Notes under the pieces: model-generated
Seen by the model: only the letters and a program-made list of their open reading frames with translations
What the model was told of the DNA's origin: nothing
Databases searched by the model: none
Translations under genes and position numbers: made by a program
Source: a virus
Reading direction: 5' to 3' (one strand)
Virus record (IMG/VR): IMGVR_UViG_3300044618_000993
Span: 2,940 to 66,939 of that record
DNA length: 64,000 nt
In this document: positions 1 through 23,100 of the stretch, in pieces
Position numbering within the stretch: the first letter of the stretch is position 1
How the letters are laid out: every line of letters starts with the position of its first letter

Positions 1-39
1 AAGAACCAGAACCATTTAAGCCACAAAAGATAAAATAAC

Positions 40-534: not shown

Positions 535-537
535 ACT

Positions 538-2208: not shown

Positions 2209-2243
2209 AAGTAATTTATCAAACAACATATCCTTAAAAATGC

Positions 2244-2251
2244 TAAATTTG
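2244..2251 (+). promoter_or_regulatory. Bacteroidota -7 promoter element TAAATTTG for the tail operon
   Basis: Matches TAnnTTTG; intergenic, 20 nt before ATG 2271. Confidence 0.65.
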
Positions 2252-2270
2252 TTCCCAATAAACAAATACC

Positions 2271-5159: not shown

Positions 5160-5803
5160 TGACTAAAGCACAATGGATAGAATTGATCAAGCGTAACCTA
5201 GACGGTGGCGACGCTCCAGCTGAACTTCGTGGACGAAATCACGAAAGAGAGATTGAGCTTTACTTGACAATGGCATTTGATACTGTATTAAACAGAAAGC
5301 AAACACAAACTCAAGAGATGCTTGCTGACATGGGTAAAGACTCATGGAGATACGATTCATTAACCAAGTCATTTGTCTTAGACATCTTAGAGGATACCAC
5401 TAGAAACAGATACTACTCTACACTTCCAGTGACTGTTATGTCAATTATTAATAACAACGGTATCAGAATGATCACACCGACTCAAGACGAGGGTGTAGCA
5501 TTTTTCCCAAGATGGCAAACAGATACATTCTTAATGGATGGATTAGATGTTAACCAAATGGTTGGTCTAATTTATTATACACTAGAAGGCAAGAAGCTAT
5601 ATTACTCTGGTGACATTGATTGTCATTGGAAGCAAGTATTAGCTAAGTTGGTTTTAAAGTTCAATGAATTTGAATTAACTGACGATATAGTAGTTCCTGA
5701 TGGTAAAGAACTTGAGATAGTTCAAGTTACATTAGGATTAATGGGTGCTAAGGCTCCGATGGATATTGTTGACGACGGCACAGCAATACAAACAACTAAA
5801 TAA
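5159..5803 (+). CDS. Putative tail ring protein
   Basis: YSTLP...GIRMI pattern, 214 aa, TAATG coupling, position in the ring cluster. Confidence 0.55.
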   Translation: MTKAQWIELIKRNLDGGDAPAELRGRNHEREIELYLTMAFDTVLNRKQTQTQEMLADMGKDSWRYDSLTKSFVLDILEDTTRNRYYSTLPVTVMSIINNNGIRMITPTQDEGVAFFPRWQTDTFLMDGLDVNQMVGLIYYTLEGKKLYYSGDIDCHWKQVLAKLVLKFNEFELTDDIVVPDGKELEIVQVTLGLMGAKAPMDIVDDGTAIQTTK

Positions 5804-5808
5804 ACGAA

Positions 5809-6567
5809 ATGGCGAACCAAGTAACATCATATTTAACTCTTATACAAGTAGTTAAGGCTTTCATGAATGAAAGAGGTGAGAAGACTCTTACCAACATGGA
5901 AAAGTATATCCAAATGGCTATAGAAGGCTATAGTGATATGCAATTATTTGAAATAAACACAATTGATGTTGCGTACTTAACGGTTAACCCAGATACATTA
6001 ACAGCCGAACTGCCTACAGACTTTGTTACAATGACAAAGATAGGTGTTAAGGTTGGCGACAGAATGTGGACTCTTACAATGAATAATGATATAATTATTC
6101 CCAGACAAGAGACAATCTGCCCATTGCCAATTGAGGAGGTTAACGAACAAACAATGATTGAGGGCGGATATTTCTTTGCTCCTCACTACAGATACGGTAG
6201 ATACACAAACACTCTTTATGGTGTTGGTGGTGGTTTTAATATAGCCTACTACAGAATAGACATGAACCGTCGTGTGATTTACTTCCACGGGAATGTGCCT
6301 AACAACGAGGTTATATTAGAATACAAATCAAGCGGAGTAAAAGCTGGCGGAGCATTAGTTCCAAGAGATGCGGCTCCTGCATTAAAAGCATATCTTCATT
6401 GGAAGACGGCTGAGTATGACTTCAGAATCCCAATGAACGAGAAAATTAGAAAAGAACAATTGTACGACAAAGAGCTATACAAGTTAAAGACTATTGAGTG
6501 TTCATTCAATATCACTGAATACCTTGACAATCAATATGCTACAATGTCTCAAGCACCTAAGCGTTAA
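5809..6567 (+). CDS. Putative tail tubular/ring protein (P22 gp4-like position)
   Basis: AELPTDFV, VILEYKSSG and ALKAYLHWK motifs; immediately upstream of the stabilization protein. Confidence 0.65.
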   Translation: MANQVTSYLTLIQVVKAFMNERGEKTLTNMEKYIQMAIEGYSDMQLFEINTIDVAYLTVNPDTLTAELPTDFVTMTKIGVKVGDRMWTLTMNNDIIIPRQETICPLPIEEVNEQTMIEGGYFFAPHYRYGRYTNTLYGVGGGFNIAYYRIDMNRRVIYFHGNVPNNEVILEYKSSGVKAGGALVPRDAAPALKAYLHWKTAEYDFRIPMNEKIRKEQLYDKELYKLKTIECSFNITEYLDNQYATMSQAPKR

Positions 6568-9500
6568 TGAAAGATCTAAGAGCATTCACTGGAGGATTAG
6601 ACTACGACTCTGATTACAGATTGGTAGGACCGACGGACTACGTCGATGCAGTAAACGTAACAACTGGTACGTCTGCAAAAGGTAGTTTAAAGAATATGTT
6701 TGGAAACGTAGAGATAAACTTTACGCTTCCAGACGGTGACAATACCTGTATTGGAACTCTTAGAAACATCAAGGCAAACTCAATAATTTATTTCGTATTT
6801 AACTCTTTAAACAATCACTCTATACTAGAGTACAAATGCGATACAAAAGTTATTGAGCCAATATTAATACCAGTTGCATCTATACCTTTTACTACAGAGT
6901 TCTTAGGTTTTACAAAAGACAACAAGATACACTCTGCAAATGTTATAGATGATATATTATTATGGACGGACAACAACGTTTCTCCACGTAAAATAAATAT
7001 TAAAAGAGCTAAAGACTTCTTGGCTCAATTAACCCCAAGTGCAATTACAACTCCATACGATAATTTAATTGCAACTGGAACTACAGCAGAAAAAATTCAA
7101 TTTATTGAATCTATTAAGTACAAGCCTTTGTACACTCCTTCAATAGAATTAAAATACGACCCAACAAGAAATACAAATTACATAAAAGAAAAAATGATAC
7201 AAGTTAAGTATCGTTATATCTATGATGACAATGAGTATTCTAGATGGAGTGATGGATCATATGTATCTTTGCCATTTGGTGACGAAAACGTACTTGGTCA
7301 AATATCTACTACAATAGCAAATAATTATTTGCAAGTAGCTTTTAATACAGGGCACCCAACAGTAAAATCAATAGAGTTAGCTTTTAGATTTAGCAATACT
7401 GGAGTTTGGGCTAAAATTGATTCACCAATACAAAAATACAGCGAAACTAATCAACGTATTTTACCTGATTATTCGACTCAATATTTTAATTTTTACAACG
7501 ATATTGTATTAATTGAAGTAATTGATGATTTAAATAATTATGACGCTGTCCCTTTATTATCTAAAACTCAAGATATAATTGACGAAAACAGATTGGTTTA
7601 TGCCAATAATGTAGAGGGTTATGAAAACCCTGTATTAAACGTTAAACTTGGCGTTCAGAATACAAGGACCGATATGGGGCAAGAGGTTGTGTATCCAATT
7701 AATGCAATACCAACAGCGCCATCAGAAAATTTTTATCTTTATAATGTTGAACCTTTTACTGGATTGTTTACAGGTGCGTTTTACATTCCAAACATAAAAC
7801 CTCAATACTTTGTAGTTGGCTCTGTTATATCATTCTCAATTGATGTATATGATGGGTCTGGATATAATATCAAATATCAATACTCTTTTAATGTTACTGA
7901 TCAAAGTTTATCAAACTATCCTAGATCTCTTGCATATGATATGCAATCAACCTTAAGAAGTTTGCTTGGGTTTAACGAAGTTTACGCAGCTCCATCTACA
8001 GCTGGTGGCAATAGTTATTGGGTAGTTACTATTGGTTTATCAAACAATAATGTATACGCTAAGGTTTCAAACGGAGTTATTGTGGCTCCAATTCGTAAAA
8101 TCACCTCTTTTAAAAAGGGGGCAAATCATACATTTGGTATAGTTTATAGAGATGCTCAAGGTAGAGATGGGGGTGTTGTAACTTCGGCTGATTTAACTGT
8201 CTATAATCCATATATACCTGAAGCATTTCCATTGGCTGCGGTTAATAACCAATATGCATATAAATCACAAATAAGTTTTGAAATAAACCATCAACCGCCA
8301 GAATGGGCCACTACATATGAAATTGTTTATGCTTTAAATGATTTACAAAAATATACTCAATTCGCAATTAAAGGAAATCCAACCTTAAATTTACAAGGCA
8401 ACATTGATATTAACTGTGATTACATTATAAACTATATAACAAAGGAAAGGGTTAGCTCTTCTGTAGATTTCCAGTTTGAAGTTGGCGATAGATTAAGATT
8501 TGTTTCTAATTCAGAAAAAGTAGTTCCTTCATATATAGAAGTAAAAGTATTAGCATTTGATACTACAACAAACATCTTAACAGTCTCTCAATATAGCAGA
8601 AATTTGGTTGAGCAAGGTATGATAACTAAGACCGAAGAAGGCACCTTAGTTGAATTGTATTCTATTAAAGCCAGATCAGATGTAGACAATAAGCCATATT
8701 TTTCTATTGGTCAAATATTTAATGTCTTAAATCCTGGCACTGCTCAAAGAGCCCATCAAGGCAATTCTCAAAATCAAACAAGTACCGCCCCAGCAATAGT
8801 TGATTTAAGCCGAGGCGATTGCTATATATTTAGAAGATATTTTAAAAATAACTTAATAATCAATATGGTTGAGTCTGAAAATTTCTCAGATTTTTATGAC
8901 TCTAAAAACATAGACATCTCGTCTATTTATGGTGTAATACCAGAAGGCAAGACAAAACGATACGAGCAAGGTATAAGATACGGTGGTAGATATTACCCAA
9001 ATACCAATATTAATGATATCTTACAATTTAATGGATCCGATTATGATACATTAAACACTAGATACGGACCAATCAACAAAGTAGCTACCGTAGGTTATGT
9101 GCTAAAGGTTCTTCAAACCAAAAAGAATACTTCAATTTATATTAATAGAAGTATGATATATAATGCTAATGGTGACGAGCAGTTGACTTTAACCGACAAA
9201 GTATTGGGCAACAAAAATCCAAGTTCTTTAGACTATGGTTGTGAGCATCCAGAAAGTGTTTGTGTTGACGACAGGCAATTGTATTTTTACGATGTAAATA
9301 ACGGTGTATTTATACAAGATGCGGCTAACGGTATGGTTCCTGTTTCTGAATATAAGGCTAAAACCTATTTTAGAAATATATCTGATAAGATTAAAAACAG
9401 CCCATATGTGTATGTGTACGCAGGTGTCGATAACTTTAACAACTATATCAACGTAACATTTATTGATCACAGCGAGTCTCCGTTAATCGAAGATCAAACT

Positions 9501-10037
9501 ATAGTTTATCATCCAATTGACAATAGATGGAAGTCTAGAATGTCTTATTTCCCAGAGTATTATGGTAGTAACGCTTTAGTGTTTGTATCTTTCATGGATG
9601 GCAAGCTTTATGAGCATAATAGAGTTGATGCCCCTAGATGTAATTACTATGGCAACCAACACTCAATGAAGGTTAAGCTAGTATCCAACAAAGACTACCC
9701 TAAAGTAAAAGTATACACATCAATTGCGGTATATGCTGACAAGACATTTAGTTCTCCAGTTTTAGGAGACATCTCAATTGAACCAAGTGTTAACTACCCT
9801 AACGGTATGGAGTCTAGACTTGTAGAAGGCAAGTGGAGATGGAAGGAAGGCGTTTTGTATGCTCAGTACTTAAGAGATGGCTTAACACCTAACTTTCCTA
9901 CAGTTGACGAGGCTATCATGGGTGGTCGTAAATTAAGAGGCGAAACATTAGTTCAACAACTAGAAAACACAGATACAGATGAGGCTACATTGTACTCGGT
10001 GATTGTGCACGGTGTGGACAGTGAATTGAGCAAATAA
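6567..10037 (+). CDS. Tail stabilization / muzzle protein (P22 gp10-like, crAss-type)
   Basis: N-terminal FTGGLDYD...YVDAVN, LLWTDNNVSPRKIN, YRYIYDDNEYS, RLVYAN, FGIVYRDAQGR, C-terminal KEG...LRG; 1156 aa, beta-rich. Confidence 0.8.
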   Translation: MKDLRAFTGGLDYDSDYRLVGPTDYVDAVNVTTGTSAKGSLKNMFGNVEINFTLPDGDNTCIGTLRNIKANSIIYFVFNSLNNHSILEYKCDTKVIEPILIPVASIPFTTEFLGFTKDNKIHSANVIDDILLWTDNNVSPRKINIKRAKDFLAQLTPSAITTPYDNLIATGTTAEKIQFIESIKYKPLYTPSIELKYDPTRNTNYIKEKMIQVKYRYIYDDNEYSRWSDGSYVSLPFGDENVLGQISTTIANNYLQVAFNTGHPTVKSIELAFRFSNTGVWAKIDSPIQKYSETNQRILPDYSTQYFNFYNDIVLIEVIDDLNNYDAVPLLSKTQDIIDENRLVYANNVEGYENPVLNVKLGVQNTRTDMGQEVVYPINAIPTAPSENFYLYNVEPFTGLFTGAFYIPNIKPQYFVVGSVISFSIDVYDGSGYNIKYQYSFNVTDQSLSNYPRSLAYDMQSTLRSLLGFNEVYAAPSTAGGNSYWVVTIGLSNNNVYAKVSNGVIVAPIRKITSFKKGANHTFGIVYRDAQGRDGGVVTSADLTVYNPYIPEAFPLAAVNNQYAYKSQISFEINHQPPEWATTYEIVYALNDLQKYTQFAIKGNPTLNLQGNIDINCDYIINYITKERVSSSVDFQFEVGDRLRFVSNSEKVVPSYIEVKVLAFDTTTNILTVSQYSRNLVEQGMITKTEEGTLVELYSIKARSDVDNKPYFSIGQIFNVLNPGTAQRAHQGNSQNQTSTAPAIVDLSRGDCYIFRRYFKNNLIINMVESENFSDFYDSKNIDISSIYGVIPEGKTKRYEQGIRYGGRYYPNTNINDILQFNGSDYDTLNTRYGPINKVATVGYVLKVLQTKKNTSIYINRSMIYNANGDEQLTLTDKVLGNKNPSSLDYGCEHPESVCVDDRQLYFYDVNNGVFIQDAANGMVPVSEYKAKTYFRNISDKIKNSPYVYVYAGVDNFNNYINVTFIDHSESPLIEDQTIVYHPIDNRWKSRMSYFPEYYGSNALVFVSFMDGKLYEHNRVDAPRCNYYGNQHSMKVKLVSNKDYPKVKVYTSIAVYADKTFSSPVLGDISIEPSVNYPNGMESRLVEGKWRWKEGVLYAQYLRDGLTPNFPTVDEAIMGGRKLRGETLVQQLENTDTDEATLYSVIVHGVDSELSK

Positions 10038-10063
10038 TTTAAACAAGAGTATAATAAATTCAT

Positions 10064-10071
10064 TACTTTTG
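10064..10071 (+). promoter_or_regulatory. -7 promoter element TACTTTTG for the cargo operon
   Basis: TAnnTTTG match in intergenic DNA before ATG 10093. Confidence 0.6.
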
Positions 10072-10092
10072 TAAAATAAACGATTTATTACT

Positions 10093-10953
10093 ATGGATCC
10101 AGTTACAATGATGTTGTTAGCTCAAGCAATCCCAACAGGGTTGCAGCTAGCCAAATCTTATAGTCAGTCTCAACAAGCTAAAGAGTTAGAGAAGGTTGGA
10201 AGACCAAAATATGAGATTCCTGAAGCTGTTGAACAACAAGTTAATCAAGCTAGATACCTAGCTGGCATGAGAGAGCTTCCTGGGCAAAACTTAATGGAAG
10301 CTAAATTGGGTCAAAACACCGCTAAAGGTATTTCTCAATTACAAAATGCTTCAGCTAACTCAGCTGACTTGGCTTCAAACATAGCAAGAATATATGGTGC
10401 CCAAAATGAAGGCGTTCAAAACATAGGATTAAAGGCTGGCCAAAACTGGCTAGGTCAACAAGGCCAACTAAGCAATGCATTGAGAATGTTGGGTCAATAC
10501 CAACAACAACAATGGGATTACAACCAAAAGCAACCATACGAAGAGGCCAAAGCAGCCGAAGCAGCATTAAGAGAAGCTTCTTACAGAAACTTAGCGGCAG
10601 CTTCAACAGGCATTGCAAGCGGAATCAGTGGAGCTGCAAATTTGCAATACCAAGACGATAGATTTAATAAAATGATGGATTTTTATAAGCAAAGTCCAAC
10701 ATATAGTTCAGTGACTGGCACTCAAAATACAACAGCAACTCCTGGGGTAACTGATCTTGGATATACTGATTTAAGAAGCGAAGGTTTTGTTGGGTATCCA
10801 TACGCTAACCCAATGCTACCTTCTTATAATGTTAGTAGAAAAAACTTAATATTTCCTTTAGATTTAAGGGATAGAGGCTATAAAGGGTATCCATATGCCC
10901 ATCCATATGAACCAGTAAGAACCAAGCCAAGCGGCATCTCATTCGTATTTTAA
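10093..10953 (+). CDS. Putative internal virion/ejection protein 1
   Basis: MDPVT-type start with hydrophobic N-terminus, A/Q/G-rich, no Cys; follows the muzzle gene as podovirus ejection genes do. Confidence 0.65.
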   Translation: MDPVTMMLLAQAIPTGLQLAKSYSQSQQAKELEKVGRPKYEIPEAVEQQVNQARYLAGMRELPGQNLMEAKLGQNTAKGISQLQNASANSADLASNIARIYGAQNEGVQNIGLKAGQNWLGQQGQLSNALRMLGQYQQQQWDYNQKQPYEEAKAAEAALREASYRNLAAASTGIASGISGAANLQYQDDRFNKMMDFYKQSPTYSSVTGTQNTTATPGVTDLGYTDLRSEGFVGYPYANPMLPSYNVSRKNLIFPLDLRDRGYKGYPYAHPYEPVRTKPSGISFVF

Positions 10954-10965
10954 TAAATAACAATA

Positions 10966-12525
10966 ATGTTAGACGGTAAAGGTTTAGTATATCAAAAAAG
11001 AGCAGGCACAGGTTCGGCAGTTTACACAGGACCAGCTGCTCAAATAGGAGCAAATCCTTTAGATGCCCTTGCTAATCAAATTAGAGTAGAAGGCAAATAT
11101 AAAGCGGCTGCTGCTGCAAAGCAAAAGGCGGAAGAAGCAAAAACTCTTAATGTTGATTTAACAGGTTGGGATTATGACAACAAAAGATTTTTTTCTGACC
11201 TAGAAAACAAATTAAAGCAAGAGGGAATGGCTTTAAAAATGGCAGGCAAAAGTTTAGATAATTATGCCGATAAAGAAGTATTAGATTGGCACAAAAAAGT
11301 CGATGAAGGTCAAAAAGCAGCATTAGCATCTGTGCATCAAGGCGATATGTATAAGGCGTTTGTTGATATGGTTAATAAAGATCCTGATAAATATGACAAG
11401 GAGCAAAGTATGACCAAAATTGGCACTTATATGCAAATGACCCCTGTAGAAAGATTAAGTGTTGACCCACAATCGTTAGCTGTGTTTAGGTATGATCCAT
11501 ACGGTCCAGTAGAAAAACTTGATATAGATAGATTTGGAAGCAAAGATGAGTGGAAAGGATTAACCAGTGAAGGCTTCAAAGAAACACTTCAAACCAAAAA
11601 GTTAAGAAGTGAAATTAACTCATTAGTTGAAAATCCTGAGAACTTAAAGTTCTATGAGTATAATAAGGATAAATACGGTTGGGAAAACTTAAATGACTAC
11701 AAGGAGTTCTTGTATAAGTATAAGAAAAACCAATTCGTAGCTGACTCTAAATATGGATTAATTAAACCTACCAATACATATGGATGGGGTTTCCAAGACT
11801 ACTACAATAATGTAGCAAATAGCGATGGATTAAATATCAATGTTGCTACAGCTCAACCTAGCGGTAAATCATCACCAACATTAACTCAAAATATATTATT
11901 AGATAAAGCCCAAGGCGTAGCTGGTGTAAACTTAGTAATCCCAGGTGGTGAAGCTAATATTTTAAAGAAAAATGAGTTAGGGGTTGGTGCTGCAAAAAGG
12001 CAAGGCAACTACACAATACAGAATGCTAACTTAGGTATAGCGTTAGTTCAAACCATGGATGGCAAATTACTACCAAGCAATCCTAATGGGATGCCAACTG
12101 GTGAATATTATGACATTAAAGATGCTAAAGGTGTCACTAAAAAGATGACTACTGCTGAAGCGTTTAAACAAGGTTTGGTAAGATACACACCAATAATTCA
12201 AGGTACTGGCAAATTCTTAAATGCATTAGGAATGCCTTTGTTTGATCCTATTGCTGCTCAGGCTGATAAATTTATAACTCCAGATATGGCTCAAAAATCT
12301 GCTGCTGAAAATGATGCATATCAAAAGTTATTAGCGTTGAATCAAGTATCTGATGAATACAACCAAAGAATGTTGCAACAAGCTAATGCAGCCATAGAGA
12401 AAAAACCAGCCGCAACAGAAATTAAAGCTAACACGGGAACTATGTTATATTGGCCAGAGTACAAAGCGGCTAATCCAAAAGCAACAAACGCAGATTATAT
12501 AGCATACAAAAAAACATTTAAATAA
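10966..12525 (+). CDS. Putative internal virion/ejection protein 2
   Basis: 519 aa, helical, no Cys; TAATG coupling to the giant gene. Confidence 0.55.
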   Translation: MLDGKGLVYQKRAGTGSAVYTGPAAQIGANPLDALANQIRVEGKYKAAAAAKQKAEEAKTLNVDLTGWDYDNKRFFSDLENKLKQEGMALKMAGKSLDNYADKEVLDWHKKVDEGQKAALASVHQGDMYKAFVDMVNKDPDKYDKEQSMTKIGTYMQMTPVERLSVDPQSLAVFRYDPYGPVEKLDIDRFGSKDEWKGLTSEGFKETLQTKKLRSEINSLVENPENLKFYEYNKDKYGWENLNDYKEFLYKYKKNQFVADSKYGLIKPTNTYGWGFQDYYNNVANSDGLNINVATAQPSGKSSPTLTQNILLDKAQGVAGVNLVIPGGEANILKKNELGVGAAKRQGNYTIQNANLGIALVQTMDGKLLPSNPNGMPTGEYYDIKDAKGVTKKMTTAEAFKQGLVRYTPIIQGTGKFLNALGMPLFDPIAAQADKFITPDMAQKSAAENDAYQKLLALNQVSDEYNQRMLQQANAAIEKKPAATEIKANTGTMLYWPEYKAANPKATNADYIAYKKTFK

Positions 12526-15500
12526 TGGATAATAAAATAAAAGAAGTATATCAATTTATTCCTCAAGGATACTTTAAAGACGAAGCTCAGTTTGAAAAAT
12601 TTGCTTCTGATCCTAAGAATGCAAAAGATTTATTTGCATTTATTAATGAAGGAACACCTGGGGCATTCAAAGACGAAGCTCAATTATCTAGTTATTTAGA
12701 CTTAAAAAAAAAAGAACCTACTCAATTGGGTTCTGGAGATGGCGAATCAGTTTCTCAATCGAAGTCGTTTGCTGAAAGGTTTGGTGAAGGGTTAGCTAAA
12801 AATAGGCCTATTATGGAAAAGGAATCTACAGTTCCTACTCCAACCAAATTGGGCATCGAAGGGGTTAAACCTGAGCCATTACCAAAAACAGAGCTACCGG
12901 TTAAGGCTAAAATTGAAAAAACAGTTCAACCTGTTACCGAAGAATCAAAGACAAAGTATCTTTGGGAATCTGTCAAAAAAGACGTTGATGCTTCTACAAG
13001 TATTACTACTCAAGAACATTTCAAAAGATTATCTGATGAATTTGCTAATGAGTATTTAGATGAAAGCCAAAAGCAAGAATACAGTTTTGTTAAAAACCTA
13101 AGGGATGCAGATGAGCTAGTTAAGAATTTACAAAAGGTATTAGAAAAGAATCCAAATAAACCAGCTGCTCAATTAAGTTTAAGCAAAGCAATAGCCGCCA
13201 AAGCAGTTCAAGAAACTGAATACACAAAGTATAAAGAGGCTAAGTATAAGCAAATAGACGCTGAAATTAAGGATCTAGAAGAAAAGGTAAACACAAGCCC
13301 ACTCTTCTCATCGTTTTGGGATAATGCTCGTAGAGACGATTACATCAACAAAATAAAAGAACTTAAATCACAAAAGGAAAATTTCTTCTTAGACGAAAAC
13401 GCATTAATTGAGAAAAAATATTCTGAGAACAAGACAGCTTTAGATAAATTTGAAATCCCAGGCAATACGCCTAAACAAAAATTACAAAACTATTATCTAA
13501 CCTTAAACAAGGAAAGAGAAATTGTATTAAATCAAATAGAGCGAAAATACAATGAATTGTCAGGGGATACTCTAGACAACTTAAAAGTTAATTTAACTAA
13601 CGTATTTGGAACTAATGCTGGAGTAGATAATTTCATTAAAACTGTTGACGCTGTATTAGGAACTGACAATGGGTTAACAGATAAACTATCGGCTTTAAAT
13701 GAAAAGATGAAATCTTTGGCCCCTGCGGTATTGATTAATAGAAACCCTATTAAAGATGTCAATGAAGGGTTTGTAGAATCAACTTTAAAAAGCGCTATTC
13801 AAACATTAGTTCCTGCTACTCAAAATTTAATATCCACGCCTAGCAAATTAGCTGAAAATATAAAAGAATCATTGGCATTGTCTAGTTTATCAGATGATTT
13901 ATTATCAAAAACGACTGGCCAAATAGTTACTGAAAAGGCAAAAGGGCCAGAAGGGTTAACTAGAGAATGGTTTGGTAATATAGCCGGTACTGCATTAGGT
14001 ATGAATCCATACTTTTCGGCTGGTACTAGCTTGGTAAAATCAGCCTCTATTGCAATGGATTTTGCAAAAATTAGCAAATATTTAGCTGGAGCAAAATATG
14101 GTAAATACCTTGTTTCTAAACCAGTTATGACTGGCTTGGGATACAAGGTAGCTGGTTACTTAATGCCGTCTAATTCCTTGGTCAAAGATGAAGCAACATT
14201 TTTATCTGGTTTCTTTGGAGGTATTGCTCAAGCAGGTATTGAAAAGGTTATAAATACAAGTTATATCGCTCAAACGTTTAATAAGCTATTTAAAGATCAA
14301 GCCGAATCAATGGCAATAAAAGTAGCTAAAATTGGCGAAAGAGTTGGTATGGGCTTGGGTGAATATGGGGAAGAGGTAGGTAACACCGTTGGAGAAATGA
14401 TTGGTACTTGGGCATCAACTGGAGACTTTAAGAAGTTAAAGGCTGACTTTGAGCAAAATTTTGGTGCTATGGATAAAAACTTAGAGTTATTTGTAGCCTC
14501 ATTTACAATGGGTGCTATCATGAGCTCTGGCAATGCTTTCGGCAAATCAGCTAATGCTAAAAGTAGAGATTACTACAACAACTTATCAGCTAACGATAAA
14601 AAGAAAGCAGATTCATTTGTACAAAGAGTAACTCAAGAAAGATATAATGCAATGGTAGCGGCTAAGAAAGCCGATATACAAGAAACTGGCATCAAGCCAA
14701 CGCCTGTAACGCCAAAAGACTTAGCAGACAAACAAGAGGCAATTGATATTTTAACTAATCCACAAAGCGGTGTAGATGAAAAGAAGGCTGCATTATCTGT
14801 ATTAGCGGATGTTGATTTAAAGATTGAGAACGACAAAATTACTAAGGCTGCTGAGGCAGAATTAAAAGCGGGCAACACATCGACAGAGGTTAAGCCGGAG
14901 GACGCTGTAATGGAGCCAATTCCAAGCGCTGAGGGTACAATAGTAACTAAAGAAGGAACCGTTGAGCCAGCGGTTGCTGAAGTTAAGCCATTAACCGAAG
15001 GTGATCAGGTTCAACTTGAGCCACAAATTAAAGGTGGTATGCCTAGAATCATGGAGTTCAAGGACAATACATGGCAACAAAAGGTAGGTAACGAATACAC
15101 AACAGTATCAAAAGAAGTACAACAAGAAGCACAAAATTTATATGATAGTCAAAACAAGCAAAGGGTATCAGGTGAAGTCGGAGTCGGGCAAGAACCTCTC
15201 CAAACCAAACCTATCGAAGGAGGCCGCCAAGAAGCGCCTAGCACAAGTGGAAATGTTCAAGCATCTGAAGAAGTAACCACACCAACTCTCGTTACCCCTA
15301 AAATAGTAGATAATTTTATCAACACTGGATTTGTAGGTGACGATGTATTAACAAGCATTGCCGAAAAGATTAAAAACAATGAGACCTTAACAAAGGATGA
15401 GAATACAATCTTTAATGGCAAAACATCTGAAATAAATGAAATTTTAATTGACCTTAAAGATCAAGCTGGTACTATTGAGCAAAAGTCTCTAGAGATGGCT

Positions 15501-18500
15501 AACAAAAACGTATCTAAGTTTTTGGAGAAATTAGGCGTTAGTGTAAATTTTGTAAATAGTCAAGAGGAGTTTGAGCAAGCGGCAAAAAATGAAGGCGTAA
15601 AAGCCGAAAAGGGTGCTCAAGGATTTTTCATTGGTGAATCAGGTAAAATATATATTAATAAATCAAACCTTCAAAAATCTTGGGCTAAGACGGTGTTGTA
15701 TCACGAGGCTACGCACCCTATTATTAATATTATTAGGAACACAAACCCGGAAAAATACAAAGCACTTGTTAATGGCTTGCAAGAATTATCTAAGACTAAT
15801 ACTCAAGTAAAAGAAGCATTAGATTGGGTTAAAAAAGAATACGATGGCTCACCAAGCGGCACTATTGAAGATGAAGGTATTGTAGAGGTAATCTCTGGTA
15901 TTGCATCTGGTAAAATACCATTTGGCCAAATTAATCCAACCCTAAGAGAAAGGTTAATTGATTTTATGAATCAAATCCTTAGGGCTTTAGGAAAGAAAGA
16001 AATTACACCTAAGACAGATACAGAGACATTCAAGAAGACTGCTAGAGAAATAGCCTATGCTATGAGAGAAGGTAAGTCTGCGGCTAAGATTGTAGGCAAG
16101 GAAAACGTAAAAGAGTACAAATACAAAGCAGTCTCTAATTTAAGTGGCCAATTTTCTATAACCAAATTTGGTAAATCAGGAATTAAAAAATCACCTGTTT
16201 TAGACAAAGATGAGTATAAGAAAAAACTTGAAAACGGCACATTAAAAATAAGCACTCCACAAGAAGCATTAGGTGACAGTACATTTATGCTTACATTCCC
16301 AGACGATTTATTTGTAGGGGATATCTTTATTGGAAACAATAAGGTTGCTGAGTTTGGTGGCGGTGTTGTTTATGCTATCGTAGAAGGTGAGAAAGGTAGA
16401 ATGTGGGCATCTGTTAGTGAAAAAACAGCCAAAGCATTTGCAGACAATGTAAATAAAAGCTTAAAGATGAACAACGGTACTTCTTATGTTGTATTAGTTA
16501 AAGGTGCTGATACTAAGCACGTATCATCTATGTCAGCAAAAGTAGGGTTCATGAAAACTTTGCTAAGATATGCTGAGAAAAATGAGTCTATGGCCAACGG
16601 TTTATTGACAGCTATTAAAGAAATATATTCTATAGGCAATGTTGCTAAACCAGAATTAGCGATAAAGAGATTTGACAACTATTTAGAAGGCGGTAGAGGT
16701 GAGGATGGCCAAACAATGAAAGAAGCTAAGTCAGCATATGATGGGCTTCGATCGGCGTTAATTAAATACGCAAACCCATTGATTACCAAGATGGCTTTAG
16801 AGATGGGATATGGAAATGAGTATTTTAATGGCACAAAATTAAAAGGTAAAAACCCAGTTTACGAAGCGTCAAATCTAACCGTAGATAAAATGTTTGCTGA
16901 CTTGCTGCAAGAAGATTTCCTTAAAGGCGTACCAGCTGGAGAGGCTTATGCAGTTATTAAAACAAATAGCGAAGTAACTATTAAAAATGATTTGTCTCAC
17001 CCATCATACCCTTGGGTTATATTAACTAAAGACGGATCCCCTGTCGCTCTTGAATTGTTTGACAAAACATTCATGACATTTGGTAAAAATGAAGCAATAA
17101 CAGGTAGATATAGTGAACCAACTGAAGGCCCAACAGGTGGATTTGGTCAAGTTTCATATACTGTACCTAAATTTAAATTAAACCCAAATAAAGAATTAAA
17201 AGGGCCAGGAACTACTGATTTATTAGGTGCCATAAATAAATATAAGGCAGTAACAGAATCAAAACAAACGGCTAAGGCTCAGTTATCTAAAGGCAAAAGA
17301 GAAACTGCTGTAGTAGACGGTGTAGCACAGCGTGTCGCCTCAGTGCCGGATAGTTTAAGCATTGTTGACGGTTTCTATTCACCAATAGAAAAGCGTATCA
17401 CAGAGTTTAAGCAACCTAAAGCGTCAGCCACTAAGTGGAAAGAAATTGTAGGCTCTAAATCTGACGAAGCGGTATTCTCTGGGATAGCTGATTGGTTAAA
17501 CACATTCAAGCCTGATCAACAAATCTCTAAAGAAGAGGTTCAAAACTTTATTAAAAACAATAGAGTTGAGATTAAGCAAGTTATCAAGGCTGATAATTGG
17601 AGAGAGTTCTATGATGAAAGAATGGCTGAGGTAGAAAAGGAAACAGAATACTTTAGGCAAAAAGGATTTAGCGGGTATCAAATAACTAGAACTCCAGACG
17701 AAATGTTTGATAAGCTAAGTGACGCTGATCAAGACAGATTAATTAATTTAAAAGCTGAAAAAGATTTTTTAAATGATGTTTATTATGATTATGGTAACTC
17801 AAGGCAAGTGTTAGCTGGTACCAAAGAAGAGGATATGCCTAAGTACATAAAGTACATCAATAGAGGCGATGCCCAAAACTACAAGGAAATACTTGTAACA
17901 GCTCCTGTTGGCAATAAATTAGAACAAGCTAACGCAATTATTGAAAAACGTTTAGAAGCTATAGACGATGAAATTGAGCAAACTAGAGAATATAAAAAGG
18001 TTGGCGATACTGGAACTGTTAACGATTTTAAATTAGTAGTTAATGACCAAGAAAGGTATGACAGCTTAGTTGCTGAACGCAAGTCTTTAATAGCTCAAGA
18101 GAAAGCAAACACTGAAAAGATTAGAGATTTAAAAAACAAGGAGTACAAATCATCTCATTACAACGAAAAAAACATTATAGTTCACACTAGAACAGATGTT
18201 AGACGTGATTCTGATGACAATAAGGTATTCTTTATTGAAGAGGTTCAATCTGATTGGGGTCAAGAGGGCAAGAGAGAAGGATTTATCGCAGAAAATAAAA
18301 GAGAAGCTCAGCGACAATATGAAATTGACAAAAATAGATATAGTAATATCCAACAAGACATTAAACAAGAAAAGTTTAATCTTGACAAAAACATAGAGCA
18401 AGATGCGGATATTAAAACTATTAAAAAATCTGGCATAGTTGCTTGGTTAGGATTAAAAGAGTTTAATGGTAAAACAGTTTTTACTAAAGATTCTGAAGGG

Positions 18501-19682
18501 GTTACGCCTCCTAAAAAAGAAGATATTATCCCATCAGAAGATTTACCAAAAAATTATGTAGATGCATATAACAGGGTAAAAGAAAGATCTAAAAAACTAG
18601 ATGAGTACATGGCAGAGAAAGATAGGTTGATAGCTAAGTATGGTCTTACGTATAATCCGTACGGTGTAACTTCTCTTACAGCGCCAGAAGGTATTTACGA
18701 AGGTCAAATTACTGAAGGACCGTATGTAACTAATACAAATTCTTGGACTAAATTAGGCTTAAAGATAGCCCTTCAACAAGCTGTTAAAGAAGGTGCTGAT
18801 AAAATTGCTTGGACCACTGGCGAACAACAAAATAAACGTTACGATTTATCTAAACAAGTAGACGCTGTTACCTATGAGAAAAATGATGATGGCACCTACA
18901 ATGTAGACGGCATAAAGAACAATAGATCCGTTTCTTACAAAGAAGATGTTCAAGCCGATCAACTTGAGTCTATGCTTGGCAAGGATGTAGCCGAAAGAAT
19001 CATTAATGATGAGGGCGATACATACTTTGATGGTAAATACATGGGCGGAGTAAAGGTATTAACTGGGGATCAGTTGACCGTTGGCGGCAAAGGAATGACC
19101 GCATTCTATGGTAGCATGGAAACCCCAGGTATACTAGGCAATGTAGCCAAAGCGTTAGTAAAAGAACTAACGGGTGTTGAGCCTAAAATTGAAGGCACGG
19201 AATTAGGTTATACCCCTGTTGAAGAAACTGAACTTATAACCACATTAGATCAATATGACAATGCGCTTAAAAAGGGTGGTATATTTTTTCAAAGAGGTGG
19301 CGAACTTATAACCAAAAAACAAGCATTTGAATTTATTGAAAAGGGCATGAAGATTGGCGTATCTTATCCTAAGGCTGACGTACAACCATCTATTGAAATT
19401 ACCCCAGAATTAAAGGCTGCCGTAGAAAAAGGTATGCCTCAATTCTCTAAAGGTAAAAAATCATCCGCAGCTGAGACTGAAAAAGTATTTAACAAAGCAA
19501 CTGACTTATTTTATAAAATCAAAGGGGCTGAAGGCTCTGCCAAAAGAAAAGCGTTAGCCGATGAGAGAAAAGCATTAATGGATAAAAACCCATCAATTAA
19601 ATTCATCGATGACAACGTTAAAGAGGTTTTAGATCAACTTGAAACAAAAAGAGTAGCAACAAGAAAAGGAAATTGTCCTTAA
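12525..19682 (+). CDS. Giant virion cargo / polyvalent protein with zincin metallopeptidase and C-terminal IEExQSDW domain
   Basis: 2385 aa; G/A-rich hydrophobic segment; QGFF...IYIN...LYHEATH (HExxH at 15702-15716); FYS...W...H-x-R...FIEEVQSDW...AVKEGADKIAW module typical of large polyvalent phage proteins. Confidence 0.75.
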   Translation: MDNKIKEVYQFIPQGYFKDEAQFEKFASDPKNAKDLFAFINEGTPGAFKDEAQLSSYLDLKKKEPTQLGSGDGESVSQSKSFAERFGEGLAKNRPIMEKESTVPTPTKLGIEGVKPEPLPKTELPVKAKIEKTVQPVTEESKTKYLWESVKKDVDASTSITTQEHFKRLSDEFANEYLDESQKQEYSFVKNLRDADELVKNLQKVLEKNPNKPAAQLSLSKAIAAKAVQETEYTKYKEAKYKQIDAEIKDLEEKVNTSPLFSSFWDNARRDDYINKIKELKSQKENFFLDENALIEKKYSENKTALDKFEIPGNTPKQKLQNYYLTLNKEREIVLNQIERKYNELSGDTLDNLKVNLTNVFGTNAGVDNFIKTVDAVLGTDNGLTDKLSALNEKMKSLAPAVLINRNPIKDVNEGFVESTLKSAIQTLVPATQNLISTPSKLAENIKESLALSSLSDDLLSKTTGQIVTEKAKGPEGLTREWFGNIAGTALGMNPYFSAGTSLVKSASIAMDFAKISKYLAGAKYGKYLVSKPVMTGLGYKVAGYLMPSNSLVKDEATFLSGFFGGIAQAGIEKVINTSYIAQTFNKLFKDQAESMAIKVAKIGERVGMGLGEYGEEVGNTVGEMIGTWASTGDFKKLKADFEQNFGAMDKNLELFVASFTMGAIMSSGNAFGKSANAKSRDYYNNLSANDKKKADSFVQRVTQERYNAMVAAKKADIQETGIKPTPVTPKDLADKQEAIDILTNPQSGVDEKKAALSVLADVDLKIENDKITKAAEAELKAGNTSTEVKPEDAVMEPIPSAEGTIVTKEGTVEPAVAEVKPLTEGDQVQLEPQIKGGMPRIMEFKDNTWQQKVGNEYTTVSKEVQQEAQNLYDSQNKQRVSGEVGVGQEPLQTKPIEGGRQEAPSTSGNVQASEEVTTPTLVTPKIVDNFINTGFVGDDVLTSIAEKIKNNETLTKDENTIFNGKTSEINEILIDLKDQAGTIEQKSLEMANKNVSKFLEKLGVSVNFVNSQEEFEQAAKNEGVKAEKGAQGFFIGESGKIYINKSNLQKSWAKTVLYHEATHPIINIIRNTNPEKYKALVNGLQELSKTNTQVKEALDWVKKEYDGSPSGTIEDEGIVEVISGIASGKIPFGQINPTLRERLIDFMNQILRALGKKEITPKTDTETFKKTAREIAYAMREGKSAAKIVGKENVKEYKYKAVSNLSGQFSITKFGKSGIKKSPVLDKDEYKKKLENGTLKISTPQEALGDSTFMLTFPDDLFVGDIFIGNNKVAEFGGGVVYAIVEGEKGRMWASVSEKTAKAFADNVNKSLKMNNGTSYVVLVKGADTKHVSSMSAKVGFMKTLLRYAEKNESMANGLLTAIKEIYSIGNVAKPELAIKRFDNYLEGGRGEDGQTMKEAKSAYDGLRSALIKYANPLITKMALEMGYGNEYFNGTKLKGKNPVYEASNLTVDKMFADLLQEDFLKGVPAGEAYAVIKTNSEVTIKNDLSHPSYPWVILTKDGSPVALELFDKTFMTFGKNEAITGRYSEPTEGPTGGFGQVSYTVPKFKLNPNKELKGPGTTDLLGAINKYKAVTESKQTAKAQLSKGKRETAVVDGVAQRVASVPDSLSIVDGFYSPIEKRITEFKQPKASATKWKEIVGSKSDEAVFSGIADWLNTFKPDQQISKEEVQNFIKNNRVEIKQVIKADNWREFYDERMAEVEKETEYFRQKGFSGYQITRTPDEMFDKLSDADQDRLINLKAEKDFLNDVYYDYGNSRQVLAGTKEEDMPKYIKYINRGDAQNYKEILVTAPVGNKLEQANAIIEKRLEAIDDEIEQTREYKKVGDTGTVNDFKLVVNDQERYDSLVAERKSLIAQEKANTEKIRDLKNKEYKSSHYNEKNIIVHTRTDVRRDSDDNKVFFIEEVQSDWGQEGKREGFIAENKREAQRQYEIDKNRYSNIQQDIKQEKFNLDKNIEQDADIKTIKKSGIVAWLGLKEFNGKTVFTKDSEGVTPPKKEDIIPSEDLPKNYVDAYNRVKERSKKLDEYMAEKDRLIAKYGLTYNPYGVTSLTAPEGIYEGQITEGPYVTNTNSWTKLGLKIALQQAVKEGADKIAWTTGEQQNKRYDLSKQVDAVTYEKNDDGTYNVDGIKNNRSVSYKEDVQADQLESMLGKDVAERIINDEGDTYFDGKYMGGVKVLTGDQLTVGGKGMTAFYGSMETPGILGNVAKALVKELTGVEPKIEGTELGYTPVEETELITTLDQYDNALKKGGIFFQRGGELITKKQAFEFIEKGMKIGVSYPKADVQPSIEITPELKAAVEKGMPQFSKGKKSSAAETEKVFNKATDLFYKIKGAEGSAKRKALADERKALMDKNPSIKFIDDNVKEVLDQLETKRVATRKGNCP
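15142..15276 (+). CDS. Nested 44-aa basic protein in the +1 frame of the giant gene
   Basis: ATG 15142 to TAA 15276 encodes MIVKTSKGYQVKSESGKNLSKPNLSKEAAKKRLAQVEMFKHLKK; AT-rich upstream; the host frame here is a low-complexity linker. Confidence 0.7.
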   Translation: MIVKTSKGYQVKSESGKNLSKPNLSKEAAKKRLAQVEMFKHLKK

Positions 19683-19687
19683 ATTTG
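19680..19687 (+). promoter_or_regulatory. -7 element TAAATTTG overlapping the giant-gene stop, 4 nt before the ferritin ATG
   Basis: TAnnTTTG-N4-ATG, same geometry as at 29793, 36066 and 54060. Confidence 0.55.
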
Positions 19688-19691
19688 TGCT

Positions 19692-20186
19692 ATGTTAAAA
19701 CCAAAAGTACTACCTCAGGAAATAGTAGACTTATTATTACCTAGGTTAAAGGATGAATTTAATGCTTACTACCTATATAGAGCAGCATCAAACTGGTGCC
19801 AAAACGTAGGTTTCTTTAAGGCTGCCGAGTTCTTTGCCGCTGAGTCTACTGACGAGTTAGCACACGCCAAGTTGTTAGAAAACTATCTAATAGATTGGAA
19901 CGTAACTCCAGAGTTGCCTACAATTGGTGAACCTAAGCTTGAGTTCTCAAGTTTAATTGACGTTATCGAGTCAGCCTACAAGGTTGAGTATGTATTATAC
20001 GAAGAGTACGAAGACACTTCAGCTAAGGCATTAAAGCTTGGCGACGTTTGTACCTTTAACTTTCTAGCCCAATTCAATGATTTTCAGCGCAAAGCAGTTG
20101 CTGAGTATTCAGATAAATTAAATATGTTAGAAGGTGTTTCTGGTAGTAAGTTTGAACTTTTATTGCTAGAGAAAAAACTATTCTAA
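19692..20186 (+). CDS. Ferritin-like protein
   Basis: DEFNAYYLY, FF...ESTDELAHA (E-x-x-H), AYKVE, D...FNFL...Q...E pattern of non-heme ferritins; 164 aa. Confidence 0.88.
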   Translation: MLKPKVLPQEIVDLLLPRLKDEFNAYYLYRAASNWCQNVGFFKAAEFFAAESTDELAHAKLLENYLIDWNVTPELPTIGEPKLEFSSLIDVIESAYKVEYVLYEEYEDTSAKALKLGDVCTFNFLAQFNDFQRKAVAEYSDKLNMLEGVSGSKFELLLLEKKLF

Positions 20187-20189
20187 TAT

Positions 20190-23100
20190 ATGGCAGGACC
20201 ATGCATCATATCATATAAGGGTAAGGACTACTCTTATGAAGAGTTTGCAACAATGCTGCATGACGGCTTGTTGGCTCAATTGGTAGACGACAATGTAATC
20301 ACAGGCATAGAAGCTGAACAGTTATCAAGAGGTGGCAGAGGTGAATACAAGCCTAGAAAATTACCTATAAGGGTTATAGAAGAGTTTCCAGAATTAGGTG
20401 AAATAATGACCGATGACGGAACATTAAATTATAGGGTAATACCAAACTCAATCACCTTAGAAGAGGCAAATGGTGTCATAAATTATTTAGGGGAAGATTT
20501 AGCTTTAAAAGAAATCAAAAACATGGACAATGGTATGTCCTGGAGGGTTAGGTTTACCGTTGGTCAGGTTTTGGCTAAAAGATTTAGAGAGTCTGGTGAG
20601 CTTGACAAGATGGTTGATGCTGTTGACGAGGTTAGCACTAAGGCCACTGAACTAGGTCAAGGCATACAAGCTTTGGCAATGTTTTCATTATTGACCCCAG
20701 AAGGATCGATAAGATACGCTGTTAAGCAAACCAAGGAAAAGATTAAAAAGCTAAGAGGCAAGAGAGAAAGTAAGTTTCAGAAAACTACAGACGATCTAAA
20801 GAAGGTTAATAAAGAAGTAGCCAAAGAGGTTACCAAAAACCTTGATAAAATCATTAACAAATCACAAGAGATCAAGCCTACTGAGACCACAGATACTCCA
20901 GAATATGGTGCTCAGAATAAGATTGTAACCAAAGAAAGATACAAAGACTTAAAGAAGGCCATAAAGGGCAAGTTCTTTTCTAACTTACCACCAGAATTGT
21001 TTGAGATTGCTGCCTATCACTTAGAGGCGTCTGGTAGACAGTTTTCTGGTTTTGCTAAGAAAATGATTAGAGACTTTGGAAACAAAGTTAAACCTCATTT
21101 AAAAACCTTATACGACAAGGCTAAAGCTAATCTATCAAAAGAATATAATGACTTTGAAGCAACCGAACAGGTTGATCAAGACTTTAGCACTATTGTAGGC
21201 AAAGAGGTTAAGAAATCAATATCAGCAGCTGGCGTTGATCTTAAAGAAATAATAGAAAGCCACTACACTAAATATGAAGCGGCTAAACGTTCGTTAACTG
21301 AAAAATTTATTCAAGACGCTGGATTAACAGCTAGCGAAGCTCAAGACTTGGCTAAAGTAGTTCAAGCTGAGTTTGATAAATTGGCTACAGAACGTAAGCA
21401 AAAGATTGTTGATAAATTGTTTACAACAAAAGAAAAGATTGCAGATAGAAAGAAGAAGCGTACAACAGAGGAAGAAATAGTTAGACTTAGCAACCTGGGT
21501 GTATTCACAAACGAAGAACTTATTAAGAAGTTTGGTGAAAAGATGGGTTGGCCAAGCATAACTAAGGAACAAATAAAAGAGATAGAAAAACTAGCTCAAA
21601 GAGTTCAAGACGCTCCAGAAGGATTAAAGAGGTTTAAGGCAGTAGAAGATCTAATGTCTTATCAAGCTAACATGAAAGGTGATAGTTTGATGGACGTGTC
21701 ATTAGCTGTATACTATGCTAATATCCTTAGCGGACCTTTGACTCACATTGTGAACATAGTAGCTAACATGGCAAGAGCCATCTTAGAATTTACTATAGTT
21801 GCTGCTCAAAATCCAAAGAACTCAAGACTAATAGTTAACGCATACCTAAACGGTATATCTCGTGGATTGCTAGAAGGTATTGCTACACTACAGACTGGTT
21901 ACTCGCCAATAAGAGGAAAGGTTGAGGTTCCAAACGTATTAGAAAGAACTCAATTTTGGGGTGGCTATAAAAACCCTGCAAACTGGTTAAAGTTTGTTAG
22001 ACGTGCTATGGTTGCTGCGGACGTTGTGTTCTTTGAAGGCGCTAAGGAAATGAGAATGTATCAGCAAGCAATTAAGTTTGCTAAGGATAATGATATCGAG
22101 CCAGGTAAATCAGCTAAAGAAAGAGCTGCCTATGTATTAGGTATCAATAATGATTTAGTATCTGATGCTCAAGCTCAAGCTCAAATAGAGTATGAGGCTG
22201 AAGTGGAAAGAATTAACAGTTCAAAAGAAAGCGATGTTAAGAAAAAAGCAATGATCGCTTCGGCTAAATTAGATGCCAAAAGACGTGTGTATGAGATAAT
22301 CGAGTCAGAGTATCCTGCAAATTCTCTTGCTGGAGCTCAGTCATATGCCGCAAGAACTACATACAACTATCCACCAGAAGGCTTACTAGGTGTTGCGGCT
22401 AATGCAATTAACTCGGCTACAACCACTGTCCCTGTGTTAAAGCTATTTGTTCCGTTCACAAATATTATTGCTAATATCATGAACGAGACAATTAACTACA
22501 CTCCTTGGGGTTTTGCTAGAGCGGCCGCAGACGGTTCAGTTACTGGTCTTAAATTAAAAAATGCTACCAGAAAGGATTGGGATGCATTATCAGAAGAACA
22601 AAAGAAACAAGAAAAGGTTGACTTAGTTTACAAAGCATTAATAGGCACGACTTTAATGGCTGCCGTATATATGCTTAGCAATATAAAAGATGATGACGAT
22701 GAGCCTATACTTAAGATAACAGCTGGAGGCACAGGAAACTATGCTAAAAACCAAGCGTTAAAAGCTCGCGGATATCAAGAGTATTCTATAAAGGTAGGTG
22801 ACAAGTGGATTTCATATAAAGAAACTCCGCTATTCATTCCTTTTGCTATTATAGGAACAATAAACGACTACGACGAGTACAACAAAAAGAGCCTAGAAGA
22901 TCCAGAAATGCAGTCTAAGGTTTCTGTTATTGTTAATCAGTTGAAGGATGTTATGTTTAATGCTACAGCTATTGCTGGTATGAACACATTCCTTAAATTA
23001 GTTACAGAGTCAAACAACGAAACGATGGGATCCAAGCTACAGACAGCTACAGCTAACTTAGCTAAAGGATTTGTTGTTCCGAACTTATATACACAAACAG

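Follow-up and report, generated by a model that had tools for sequence, protein, structure and literature searches.

Do the same 135 nucleotides (nt) inside a giant phage gene encode two proteins and, if so, which of the two readings is the older one? This question is raised by a locus in the IMG/VR virus record IMGVR_UViG_3300044618_000993 (66,939 bp, rated 96% complete), of which bases 2940-66939 were analyzed (64,000 nt, called here the window). At positions 15142-15276 of the window, a complete small open reading frame (ORF) lies in the +1 frame of a 7-kb gene, and a preliminary description had offered two explanations for it: a real gene overprinted within a linker, or the out-of-frame reading of a captured gene. 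The data presented here support a combination of both. We put at about 85% the probability that this stretch is truly dual-coding, an old small gene having been captured by the giant gene, which reads through it as a linker while the small gene is still expressed. The newer, overprinted reading is, in that case, the linker of the giant protein, and not the small ORF.

The Nested ORF and Its Host Gene

The small ORF (15142-15276, + strand) begins with an ATG at 15142, ends with a TAA at 15274-15276 and comprises 44 codons, whose translation is identical to that given in the preliminary description. It is located wholly inside a giant ORF of the same strand (12525-19682, 7158 nt from ATG to stop, 2385 amino acids (aa)), in a different frame and with its own start and stop, its phase being +1 relative to the giant ORF ((15142-12525) mod 3 = 1). 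The host frame over the small ORF reads as an odd linker, residues 873-918 of the giant protein, and the content of guanine plus cytosine (GC) is locally higher, with values of 0.50-0.53 at 15150-15299 against around 0.30-0.40 on both sides (100-nt windows), both as had been described before.

A Large Family of Small Basic Proteins

The preliminary description had expected free-standing phage homologues of the 44-aa peptide. A word-indexed search among proteins of 24-77 aa (E ≤ 0.01) returned 309 small homologues out of 310 candidates, free-standing phage copies among them. The 120 homologues listed have 42-76 aa and are 73-90% identical to the window peptide, nearly all of them over their full length. 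The family alignment (A1) contains 15 invariant and 8 nearly invariant columns, and its consensus, G-Y-Q-V-K-S-E-S-G-K-N-L ... A-x-K-R-L-A-Q-V-E-x-F-K, agrees with the pattern given there for small phage proteins (G-Y-x-V-x-S-x-x-G-K-N-L...A-x-x-R-L-x-Q-x-E-x-F-K). The window ORF matches the A1 profile end to end (103.8 bits, E 1.7e-31) and has the length and signature of the family, around 43-60 aa with G-Y-x-V-x-S-x-x-G-K-x-L ... A-x-x-R-L-x-x-V/I-E-x-F-K from residue 1. An exhaustive profile search through 1.84 billion representatives of 50%-identity clusters detected 1382 clusters at E ≤ 0.001 (225 of them at E ≤ 1e-10), mostly of 45-110 aa; a word search among longer proteins gave just three, of 85-113 aa. 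A second in-frame copy of the domain at 14977-15141 was considered and discarded, as the A1 profile finds one copy alone in the window. Tandem two-copy proteins do occur elsewhere (P0152, P0202).

The hairpin-plus-helix fold and the basic character proposed for the peptide were reproduced by AlphaFold2, which predicts strands at residues 2-4 and 9-12 (hairpin 2-12) and a helix at 26-42 with a predicted local distance difference test score (pLDDT) of 90.8, and by its composition, with 12 K+R versus 3 D+E and an isoelectric point (pI) of 10.3. No library names this family. The window peptide gave no Pfam match at E ≤ 1 and no NCBIfam match, and the nearest library entry, phrog_26216, was found at E = 0.087, a value that does not establish it as a member of the same family. 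Relatives of the peptide showed sub-threshold matches to SPOR (E = 0.0054), DUF2188 (E = 0.037) and also DUF6316. Membership in DUF2188 or SPOR was rejected, since the relatives score 14.6 against a cut-off of 22 for the former and 17.5 against 21 for the latter; these Pfam families are like the small proteins in size and loosely in pattern, but every match is below the curated cut-offs and the window peptide itself has none.

Structural searches were likewise poor in names. A sequence profile search of the Protein Data Bank (PDB) with the small protein gave spectrin alone, at E ≥ 0.19, Foldseek against the PDB gave nothing at E ≤ 0.001, and the ESM Atlas returned only clusters of "hypothetical protein". 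The best matches in BFVD were uncharacterized phage proteins with template modelling (TM) scores of 0.8-0.9 and a probability of 1.0, yet with E ≥ 0.027, a weak value due to the tiny size of the domain; they include small proteins as well as larger ones named prohead protease or XkdF. Fused forms of the domain carried no informative additional domain, apart from one weak DnaJ match, and the match of P0209 was to a low-complexity repeat protein and was discounted. A literature search found no account of the nested gene or of the family, a provisional result with supplements and subscription journals outside its scope.

The Nested Arrangement Recurs among Relatives

A search of IMG/VR with a back-translated pattern detected 269 relatives, 80 loci of which were taken, and 80 rows were examined (79 viral loci plus the window, L071 being left out since the motif pattern did not detect it). 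The preliminary description had held that stops in the +1 frame among relatives would speak against a gene, and no relative has one. The frame one base upstream was stop-free across the small ORF in 62 of the 80 rows, in 60 of which the open host frame extends over 935 to more than 3100 aa (in the other two, L059 and L062, it has 119 codons). The small gene was in the +1 frame of the big one in every nested row, and these loci cover flank GC contents of 0.32-0.67. In the remaining 18 rows that frame contains stops and the small gene is free-standing.

A second route to the same arrangement was provided by a domain of the host protein with an H-E-x-x-H motif, whose alignment (A2) led to 29 viral loci. 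The small gene was nested at +1 in 16 of them. In six others a divergent homologue directly follows the giant gene (TAA-n-ATG or ATGA), four of these trailing copies having the order stop, one base, ATG. One locus has an in-frame copy near the C-terminus of the giant protein (L092), another has the gene nested in a separate upstream ORF of 935 aa (L109, same contig as L014), and no copy was found in five, three of which are cut contigs. Another of these five belongs to a complete record of 73,169 bp (L085, genome G001), which showed no match to the small gene anywhere in its sequence; its giant gene has the HExxH domain and C-terminal modules in common with that of the window. Among prokaryote genome bins, 7 of 51 loci were nested in frames of at least 690 aa, all at +1.

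Selection Acts on Both Reading Frames

The relatives L004 and L003 were compared with the window base by base. Against L004 there are 16 differences over the 135 nt, and all 16 fall on third positions of the small frame, being synonymous for the small protein and changing the host residue; against L003, each of the five differences is silent in the small protein and alters the host residue. Pairwise identity among the 47 unique nested copies averages 0.784 for the small frame, 0.446 for the host frame and 0.718 for nucleotides, and the entropy at positions 1, 2 and 3 of the small-frame codons is 0.55, 0.40 and 1.07.

At the ATG of the small gene, the codon periodicity changes from one frame to the other. 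Where the window and L003 differ, the changes are distributed over host-frame positions 1, 2 and 3 as 76/44/171 at 13692-14968 and as 2/1/10 at 14977-15141, and as 4/0/0 inside the small ORF. The same switch was found in independent metagenomes from lakes and fresh water: of the variant places listed in their contigs, 27 are upstream of the small ORF, 18 of them at host-frame third positions, and 13 are inside it, all of them at small-frame third positions, there being 16 more variant places beyond those listed.

These patterns bear on the idea that the small ORF is a recent and unexpressed relic, intact because of its recency or because of constraint on the host frame. That expression is predicted from sequence signals and that one complete relative (L085) does without the gene would agree with it. 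However, the nested copies have diverged to 72% nucleotide identity and yet keep 78% amino acid identity in the small frame versus 45% in the host frame, all differences from L004 and L003 are silent for the small protein alone, start codons and leaders are conserved, and constraint on the host frame would have placed the variation on host-frame third positions, the opposite of what is seen. We consider a relic extremely improbable.

The host frame is also preserved. Its openness was evaluated by keeping the peptide and drawing synonymous codons according to the usage of each locus. Under this re-coding, the chance of an open host frame in the window is around 0.0005, and 0.9 open host frames would be expected among 63 unique copies, where 47 were observed; the third frame is open in none of the 63 (expected 0.33). 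In the 16 free-standing copies, the frame equivalent to that of the host is interrupted by 1-9 stops, 3.8 on average. The basis of this openness is the use of T at third positions, which amounts to 2.3% in nested copies, while their own loci have 29% and the free copies 17.8%. Considering the sites where T would be synonymous, none of the 567 at which it would create a host-frame stop has T in nested copies, and 50 of the 643 (7.8%) at which it would be harmless do, whereas in free copies the two values are 29.9% and 31.1%. The depletion of T also at harmless sites implies that the host reading is kept free of T-initial codons in general (Phe, Leu, Ser, Tyr, Cys, Trp). In line with this, hydrophobic and aromatic residues make up 7.4% of the linker versus 22.2% of the rest of the giant proteins, and G, E, Q, P and V are enriched. 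The local rise in GC is explained by the purge of third-position T that keeps the host frame open, so it does not necessarily indicate a foreign origin. Both frames are maintained by selection.

A scan of alternate frames, which had been suggested for the linkers of other polyvalent genes, was run on the five big genes of the window. It yielded 11 other alternate-frame ORFs of at least 40 aa, none of them protein-like, and low third-position T was found among them at 23913-24134 alone, a collagen-repeat artefact. This ORF, in the +1 frame of the tail-fibre gene (23543-29476), has 73 codons with a third-position T of 0.08 and 56% GC, and reads as a Q/E/L repeat within a collagen-like tail-fibre PHROG region; it is most likely a by-product of the Gly-X-Y repeat and no gene.

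Signals at the Start of the Small Gene

In 48 nested rows, the aligned first codon is ATG in 43 and GTG in 3, and in the other 2 there is an ATG one codon upstream. A GGAG(G) motif is present 6-10 nt upstream in the four nested copies with flank GC of at least 0.6 and in the majority of the free-standing ones, the leaders of the low-GC nested copies being rich in A. In the window, the predicted folding energy of the region from -30 to +20 is 0.0 kcal/mol versus an average of -5.8 elsewhere in the gene (just 0.9% of the windows in this giant gene are as unstructured), and the A content from -20 to -1 is 0.55 versus 0.37. In 38 of the 47 unique nested loci, the start region belongs to the 10% of windows with the least structure in the giant gene concerned. 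A lack of any translation signal, which the preliminary description had named as a possible objection, is therefore not what was found. These features are those expected of a real start site, although they are no proof of translation. A sigma-70 scan around the start gave 5 sites versus 2.4 expected, none of them upstream on the + strand, and thus no sign of an internal promoter, with promoters of the Bacteroidota type not covered by the scan. A freshwater host from the Bacteroidota is suggested by a GC content of 35%, the A-rich leaders and the occurrence in lake metagenomes. Among the sequencing runs listed as containing the stretch there was no RNA run. Taken as signals in the sequence, the data suggest that the small gene is expressed, apparently by independent internal initiation on the late mRNA.

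The small frame could be entered in another way, by programmed +1 ribosomal frameshifting, which would fuse the N-terminal 872 residues of the giant protein to the 44-aa domain and produce no free 5-kDa protein. The domain is indeed joined to large proteins in L092, in P0160 and in a Klebsiella phage head protein, all described below. The start codon, on the other hand, is kept at the first residue of the family or one codon upstream in 48 of 48 nested rows, it is preceded by a Shine-Dalgarno sequence in the high-GC copies and by an unstructured A-rich leader elsewhere, and free-standing homologues start at exactly the same Met; P0160, in turn, is a single database protein without DNA, in which a one-base assembly error is possible. 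Frameshifting thus seems very unlikely to us as compared with internal initiation.

A Conserved Island within Mosaic Giant Genes

BLASTP comparisons of the parts of the giant proteins before and after the overlap showed a patchy and re-ordered similarity, and 8 of 62 upstream parts had no partner at E < 1e-5. The small protein is far more conserved than any protein around it. In L004 the small protein is 100% identical to that of the window, yet the giant protein resembles that of the window solely in two parts, the 62 aa that precede the small gene and the last 74 aa. At the DNA level, the similarity between the two inside the giant gene is limited to 14976-15280 (305 nt, 88%). In the comparison with L003 the identity is 94% at 14977-15275 versus around 77% in the flanks, and in both comparisons the right edge of this conserved island coincides with the stop codon of the small gene. 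In the freshwater run X10, many contigs match 15097-15285 alone, a pile-up that shows contigs matching the island and does not represent abundance. Nearly the whole interior of the giant gene has been replaced between the window and L004 except for the island, a clear case of module swapping inside one gene. Like a polyvalent gene, the host gene is giant, consists of shuffled modules and is located among virion genes, and its relatives share some modules in different orders. Two further segments, 19478-20287 (L004:10511-11320) and 9032-10673 (L004:1-1642), are 91-93% identical between the window and L004; they comprise the neighbouring genes on both sides and the extreme end of the giant gene.

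Could the island act as a nucleic acid, as a recombination joint, an RNA structure or a packaging signal, with the open small frame being incidental? The restriction of the similarity with L004 and of the X10 contigs to the island, and its position at mosaic boundaries, are what such an element would give. By contrast, a DNA or RNA element would not load the variation on the third positions of one frame while keeping its amino acids, the same protein is found free-standing elsewhere with different codons and with many stops in the other frame, and the start region is predicted to be unstructured. We give this alternative next to no credit as an explanation of the small frame; a secondary role of the island as a recombination joint is compatible with the dual-coding reading.

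The Family outside the Nested Context

Free-standing copies are found at most 4 nt upstream of the large terminase gene (L017, L038) and between the portal and major head protein genes (L073, L080). Among Klebsiella phages, 43 records contain a motif of 50% identity within a feature that is annotated, depending on the record, as hypothetical, capsid, coat or prohead protease. In the one record of these that was examined, the motif is the in-frame N-terminus of a 466-aa protein with a weak DUF2213 match, encoded just upstream of the decoration and major capsid genes. In phages, the family always travels with head, packaging or capsid-interior genes.

A close variant of the small gene occurs by itself on large chromosomal contigs in bins of Acidobacteriota, Planctomycetota and Omnitrophota. 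Four of these chromosomal loci were scanned (three from Acidobacteriota and one from Phycisphaerae), and all have ordinary cellular neighbours that differ between genomes, such as an M24 peptidase, a FadL-type porin, an HD-domain protein, a periplasmic binding protein and an aldo-keto reductase. These homologues (L131, L139, L145 and L130, at around 6001-6132 of each locus, and also L121 and L116) have G-G-P-Y-K-S-K as central motif, in place of S-K-P-N-L-S-K, and look like a cellular microprotein family. As free-standing, head-protein-fused and chromosomal copies exist, the family predates the nesting and is not restricted to phages.

Three further members deserve mention. Aeromonas phage 1233 (L002; OR359403.1, 54724-54852, minus strand), a cultured phage of 67 kb, has an unannotated free-standing homologue, not nested, which is 58% identical to the window peptide and 72% to the G-G-P-Y variant; experiments on the small-protein family could start from it. 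L092 contains at 3031-3120 a partial in-frame copy of the domain, around 100 residues before the C-terminus of a frame of 1109 aa (25-3351), and its giant protein and that of the window both end in a similar short basic ...C-P terminus. In P0160, a protein-only entry of 395 aa, what looks like the N-terminal part of a giant protein runs in frame into the small domain and ends at its stop, with an apparent one-base shift at the junction, right after the host-frame Tyr-Asp, which may be an assembly error or a natural frameshift variant.

Genomic Neighbourhood and the Giant Protein

As shown in Table 1, the giant gene is surrounded by a phage virion module. Just past the tail genes, two adjacent ORFs with PHROG matches to HNH or homing endonucleases may represent a mobile endonuclease insertion. 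The 164-aa gene that follows the giant gene of the window has no homology to the genes following the small gene in L090-type loci.

Table 1. Features of the window discussed in the text.
Feature	Position	Strand	Remarks
Nested small gene	15142..15276	+	44 aa, pI 10.3, ~5 kDa, predicted hairpin + helix; large unnamed family
Host gene	12525..19682	+	2385-aa giant mosaic virion-module protein; polyvalent/cargo-like
Host-frame linker	15141..15278	+	46 residues (873-918), hydrophilic; G/E/Q/V/P-rich, hydrophobic-poor
Putative internal initiation region	15112..15161	+	A-rich leader, no predicted structure, ends in ATG
Conserved DNA island	14977..15280	+	Common to otherwise different giant genes; right edge at small gene stop codon
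HExxH domain of host protein	15579..16208	+	Invariant H-E-x-x-H; in many giant genes, at varying distance from small gene
PHROG virion structural protein matches	4476-10037		Upstream of giant gene
DarB-like/internal virion protein gene	20190-23546		Downstream of giant gene
Tail-fibre gene	23543-29476		
Endolysin	40-534		
Large terminase	58602-60788		
Portal	60788-63286		
Two adjacent ORFs with HNH/homing-endonuclease PHROG matches	34485-34892 and 34919-35650	+	Just past tail genes

The 2385-aa host protein gave no Pfam or PHROG match, and its gene gave no blastn match against cultured phages. Its most recognizable part is the HExxH domain, in which the H-E-x-x-H motif is invariant in the 11 sequences aligned (11/11, alignment A2). 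A search for relatives of this domain with the single sequence found none, and the search with alignment A2 then gave the 29 viral loci mentioned above. A zincin fold of the domain was not confirmed: there was no sequence match in the PDB, and the AlphaFold2 model, with a pLDDT of 72.9, had no Foldseek match at E ≤ 0.001.

Origin and Possible Role of the Small Gene

That the small gene was captured follows from its belonging to an older and wider family; that it is also a real overlapping gene follows from the purifying selection in its own frame and from the conservation of its start codon and initiation signals. The ancestral order was probably that still seen in relatives, namely giant gene, stop, one base and the ATG of the small gene. 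Loss of the stop, or recombination, would then have carried the giant frame into the small gene in the -1 register, exactly the phase of all nested copies; in several of these the junction reads Asp-Asp, which is what a stop-one base-ATG arrangement would give. The purge of third-position T and the fusion to downstream modules would have come after the nesting, the giant protein reading the small gene as a hydrophilic linker between domains. From there, recombination within its conserved DNA could have carried the island from one giant gene to another, and the small protein would be made by internal initiation at the conserved ATG or GTG behind an unstructured A-rich leader, with a Shine-Dalgarno sequence in the high-GC relatives.

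Several points weigh against this scenario or against parts of it. The expression of the small protein is deduced from sequence signals, and neither a named family nor a solved structure supports its function. The nested loci lack phylogenetic independence, as many come from related phages of 60-70 kb, so that locus counts overstate the number of independent events. The L085 record, with no copy, implies that the small gene is dispensable in some backgrounds. Cultured phages are represented by at least 50 records, all with less than 60% identity, and the nested form was in none of those examined. As for the host gene, its polyvalent or zincin label comes from the H-E-x-x-H motif and the mosaicism, and the fold search did not confirm it. 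A role in the head interior or with nucleic acids, finally, is a deduction from context and charge.

With these points in mind, we tentatively suggest, from context, conservation and charge, that the small protein is a head-interior protein that binds nucleic acid or helps to load virion-internal proteins, a proposal that we regard as possible though doubtful. A loose parallel is offered by the Dar proteins of phage P1, where small proteins assist a giant one that is packaged. A broader proposal, rather improbable in our opinion, is that of an ancient and near-invariant microprotein of bacteria and phages binding a universal target (DNA, RNA or the ribosome), which in a large clade of aquatic phages would be co-delivered with the injected cargo, the island doubling as a recombination joint. 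If this were true, one stretch of 135 nt would be at the same time a gene, a linker and a recombination hinge for exchanging the halves of polyvalent genes.

Comparison with Known Systems and Significance

Only a few embedded genes are known in double-stranded DNA phages, most of them spanins, and they are suppressed by gene callers. By analogy of architecture, the nearest precedent of the nested small gene would be the Rz/Rz1 pair of lambda, in which Rz1 lies in the +1 frame of Rz. The present family shares with Rz/Rz1 its occurrence in nested, in ATGA or one-base-spaced and in separate forms, and differs in that the host is a 7-kb virion gene, not a partner of 150 codons, and in that the embedded gene is old, highly conserved and endowed with cellular relatives, the host reading being derived and weakly constrained. 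As in lambda, a complete small phage gene lies wholly inside another one on the same strand, where gene callers routinely miss it, and a survey of Rz/Rz1 spanin genes counts 182 embedded, 228 overlapped and 118 separated cases out of 528 systems and discusses the loss of a stop codon as a route to embedding (Kongari et al. 2018, PMC6139136). The possibility that the small protein is itself an o-spanin was rejected, since it has no Cys or lipobox and no signal peptide, transmembrane segment or hydrophobic N-terminus, and it is encoded in a virion module and not in a lysis cassette.

The host gene resembles the polyvalent proteins described by Iyer et al. (2017, PMC5512222) in its giant size, shuffled modules, location in a virion module next to a DarB-like/internal-virion-protein gene and H-E-x-x-H domain, a zincin-like metallopeptidase being, according to that text, the commonest domain of such proteins. 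It is unlike them in having no detected Pfam or PHROG domain and no confirmed zincin fold. In its main text that article uses neither "overlapping" nor "frameshift" and describes no nested gene. The overprinted genes of small viruses, such as A/B/K/E of Microviridae (for reviews, see PMC8227390 and PMC3494269), are similar in that two frames of the same strand are read, one of them constrained and the other compositionally biased and prone to disorder. In classic overprinting, however, a novel gene is born inside an older one, whereas here the short gene is the older and the linker of the long gene is the newcomer; also unlike overprinting in small viruses, it takes place in a 67-kb double-stranded DNA phage with no evident pressure on genome size.

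The direction of overprinting is thus reversed, a long gene having grown over an old short gene with bacterial relatives. Dual coding leaves an unusually clean signature here, one that recurs in dozens of uncultivated phages over a two-fold range of GC content and provides a natural experiment on the extent to which a gene can be re-coded so as to accommodate another frame. Among phage genes, the giant mosaic virion or polyvalent ones are the least understood class, and the conserved island is a marker for finding them and for aligning genes that are otherwise unalignable. Annotation pipelines for viral metagenomes would miss the small gene in most of the genomes that carry it. What they would miss is a new, abundant and highly conserved family of microproteins, whose contexts (terminase, portal, prohead protease and cargo gene) point to head assembly or DNA delivery.

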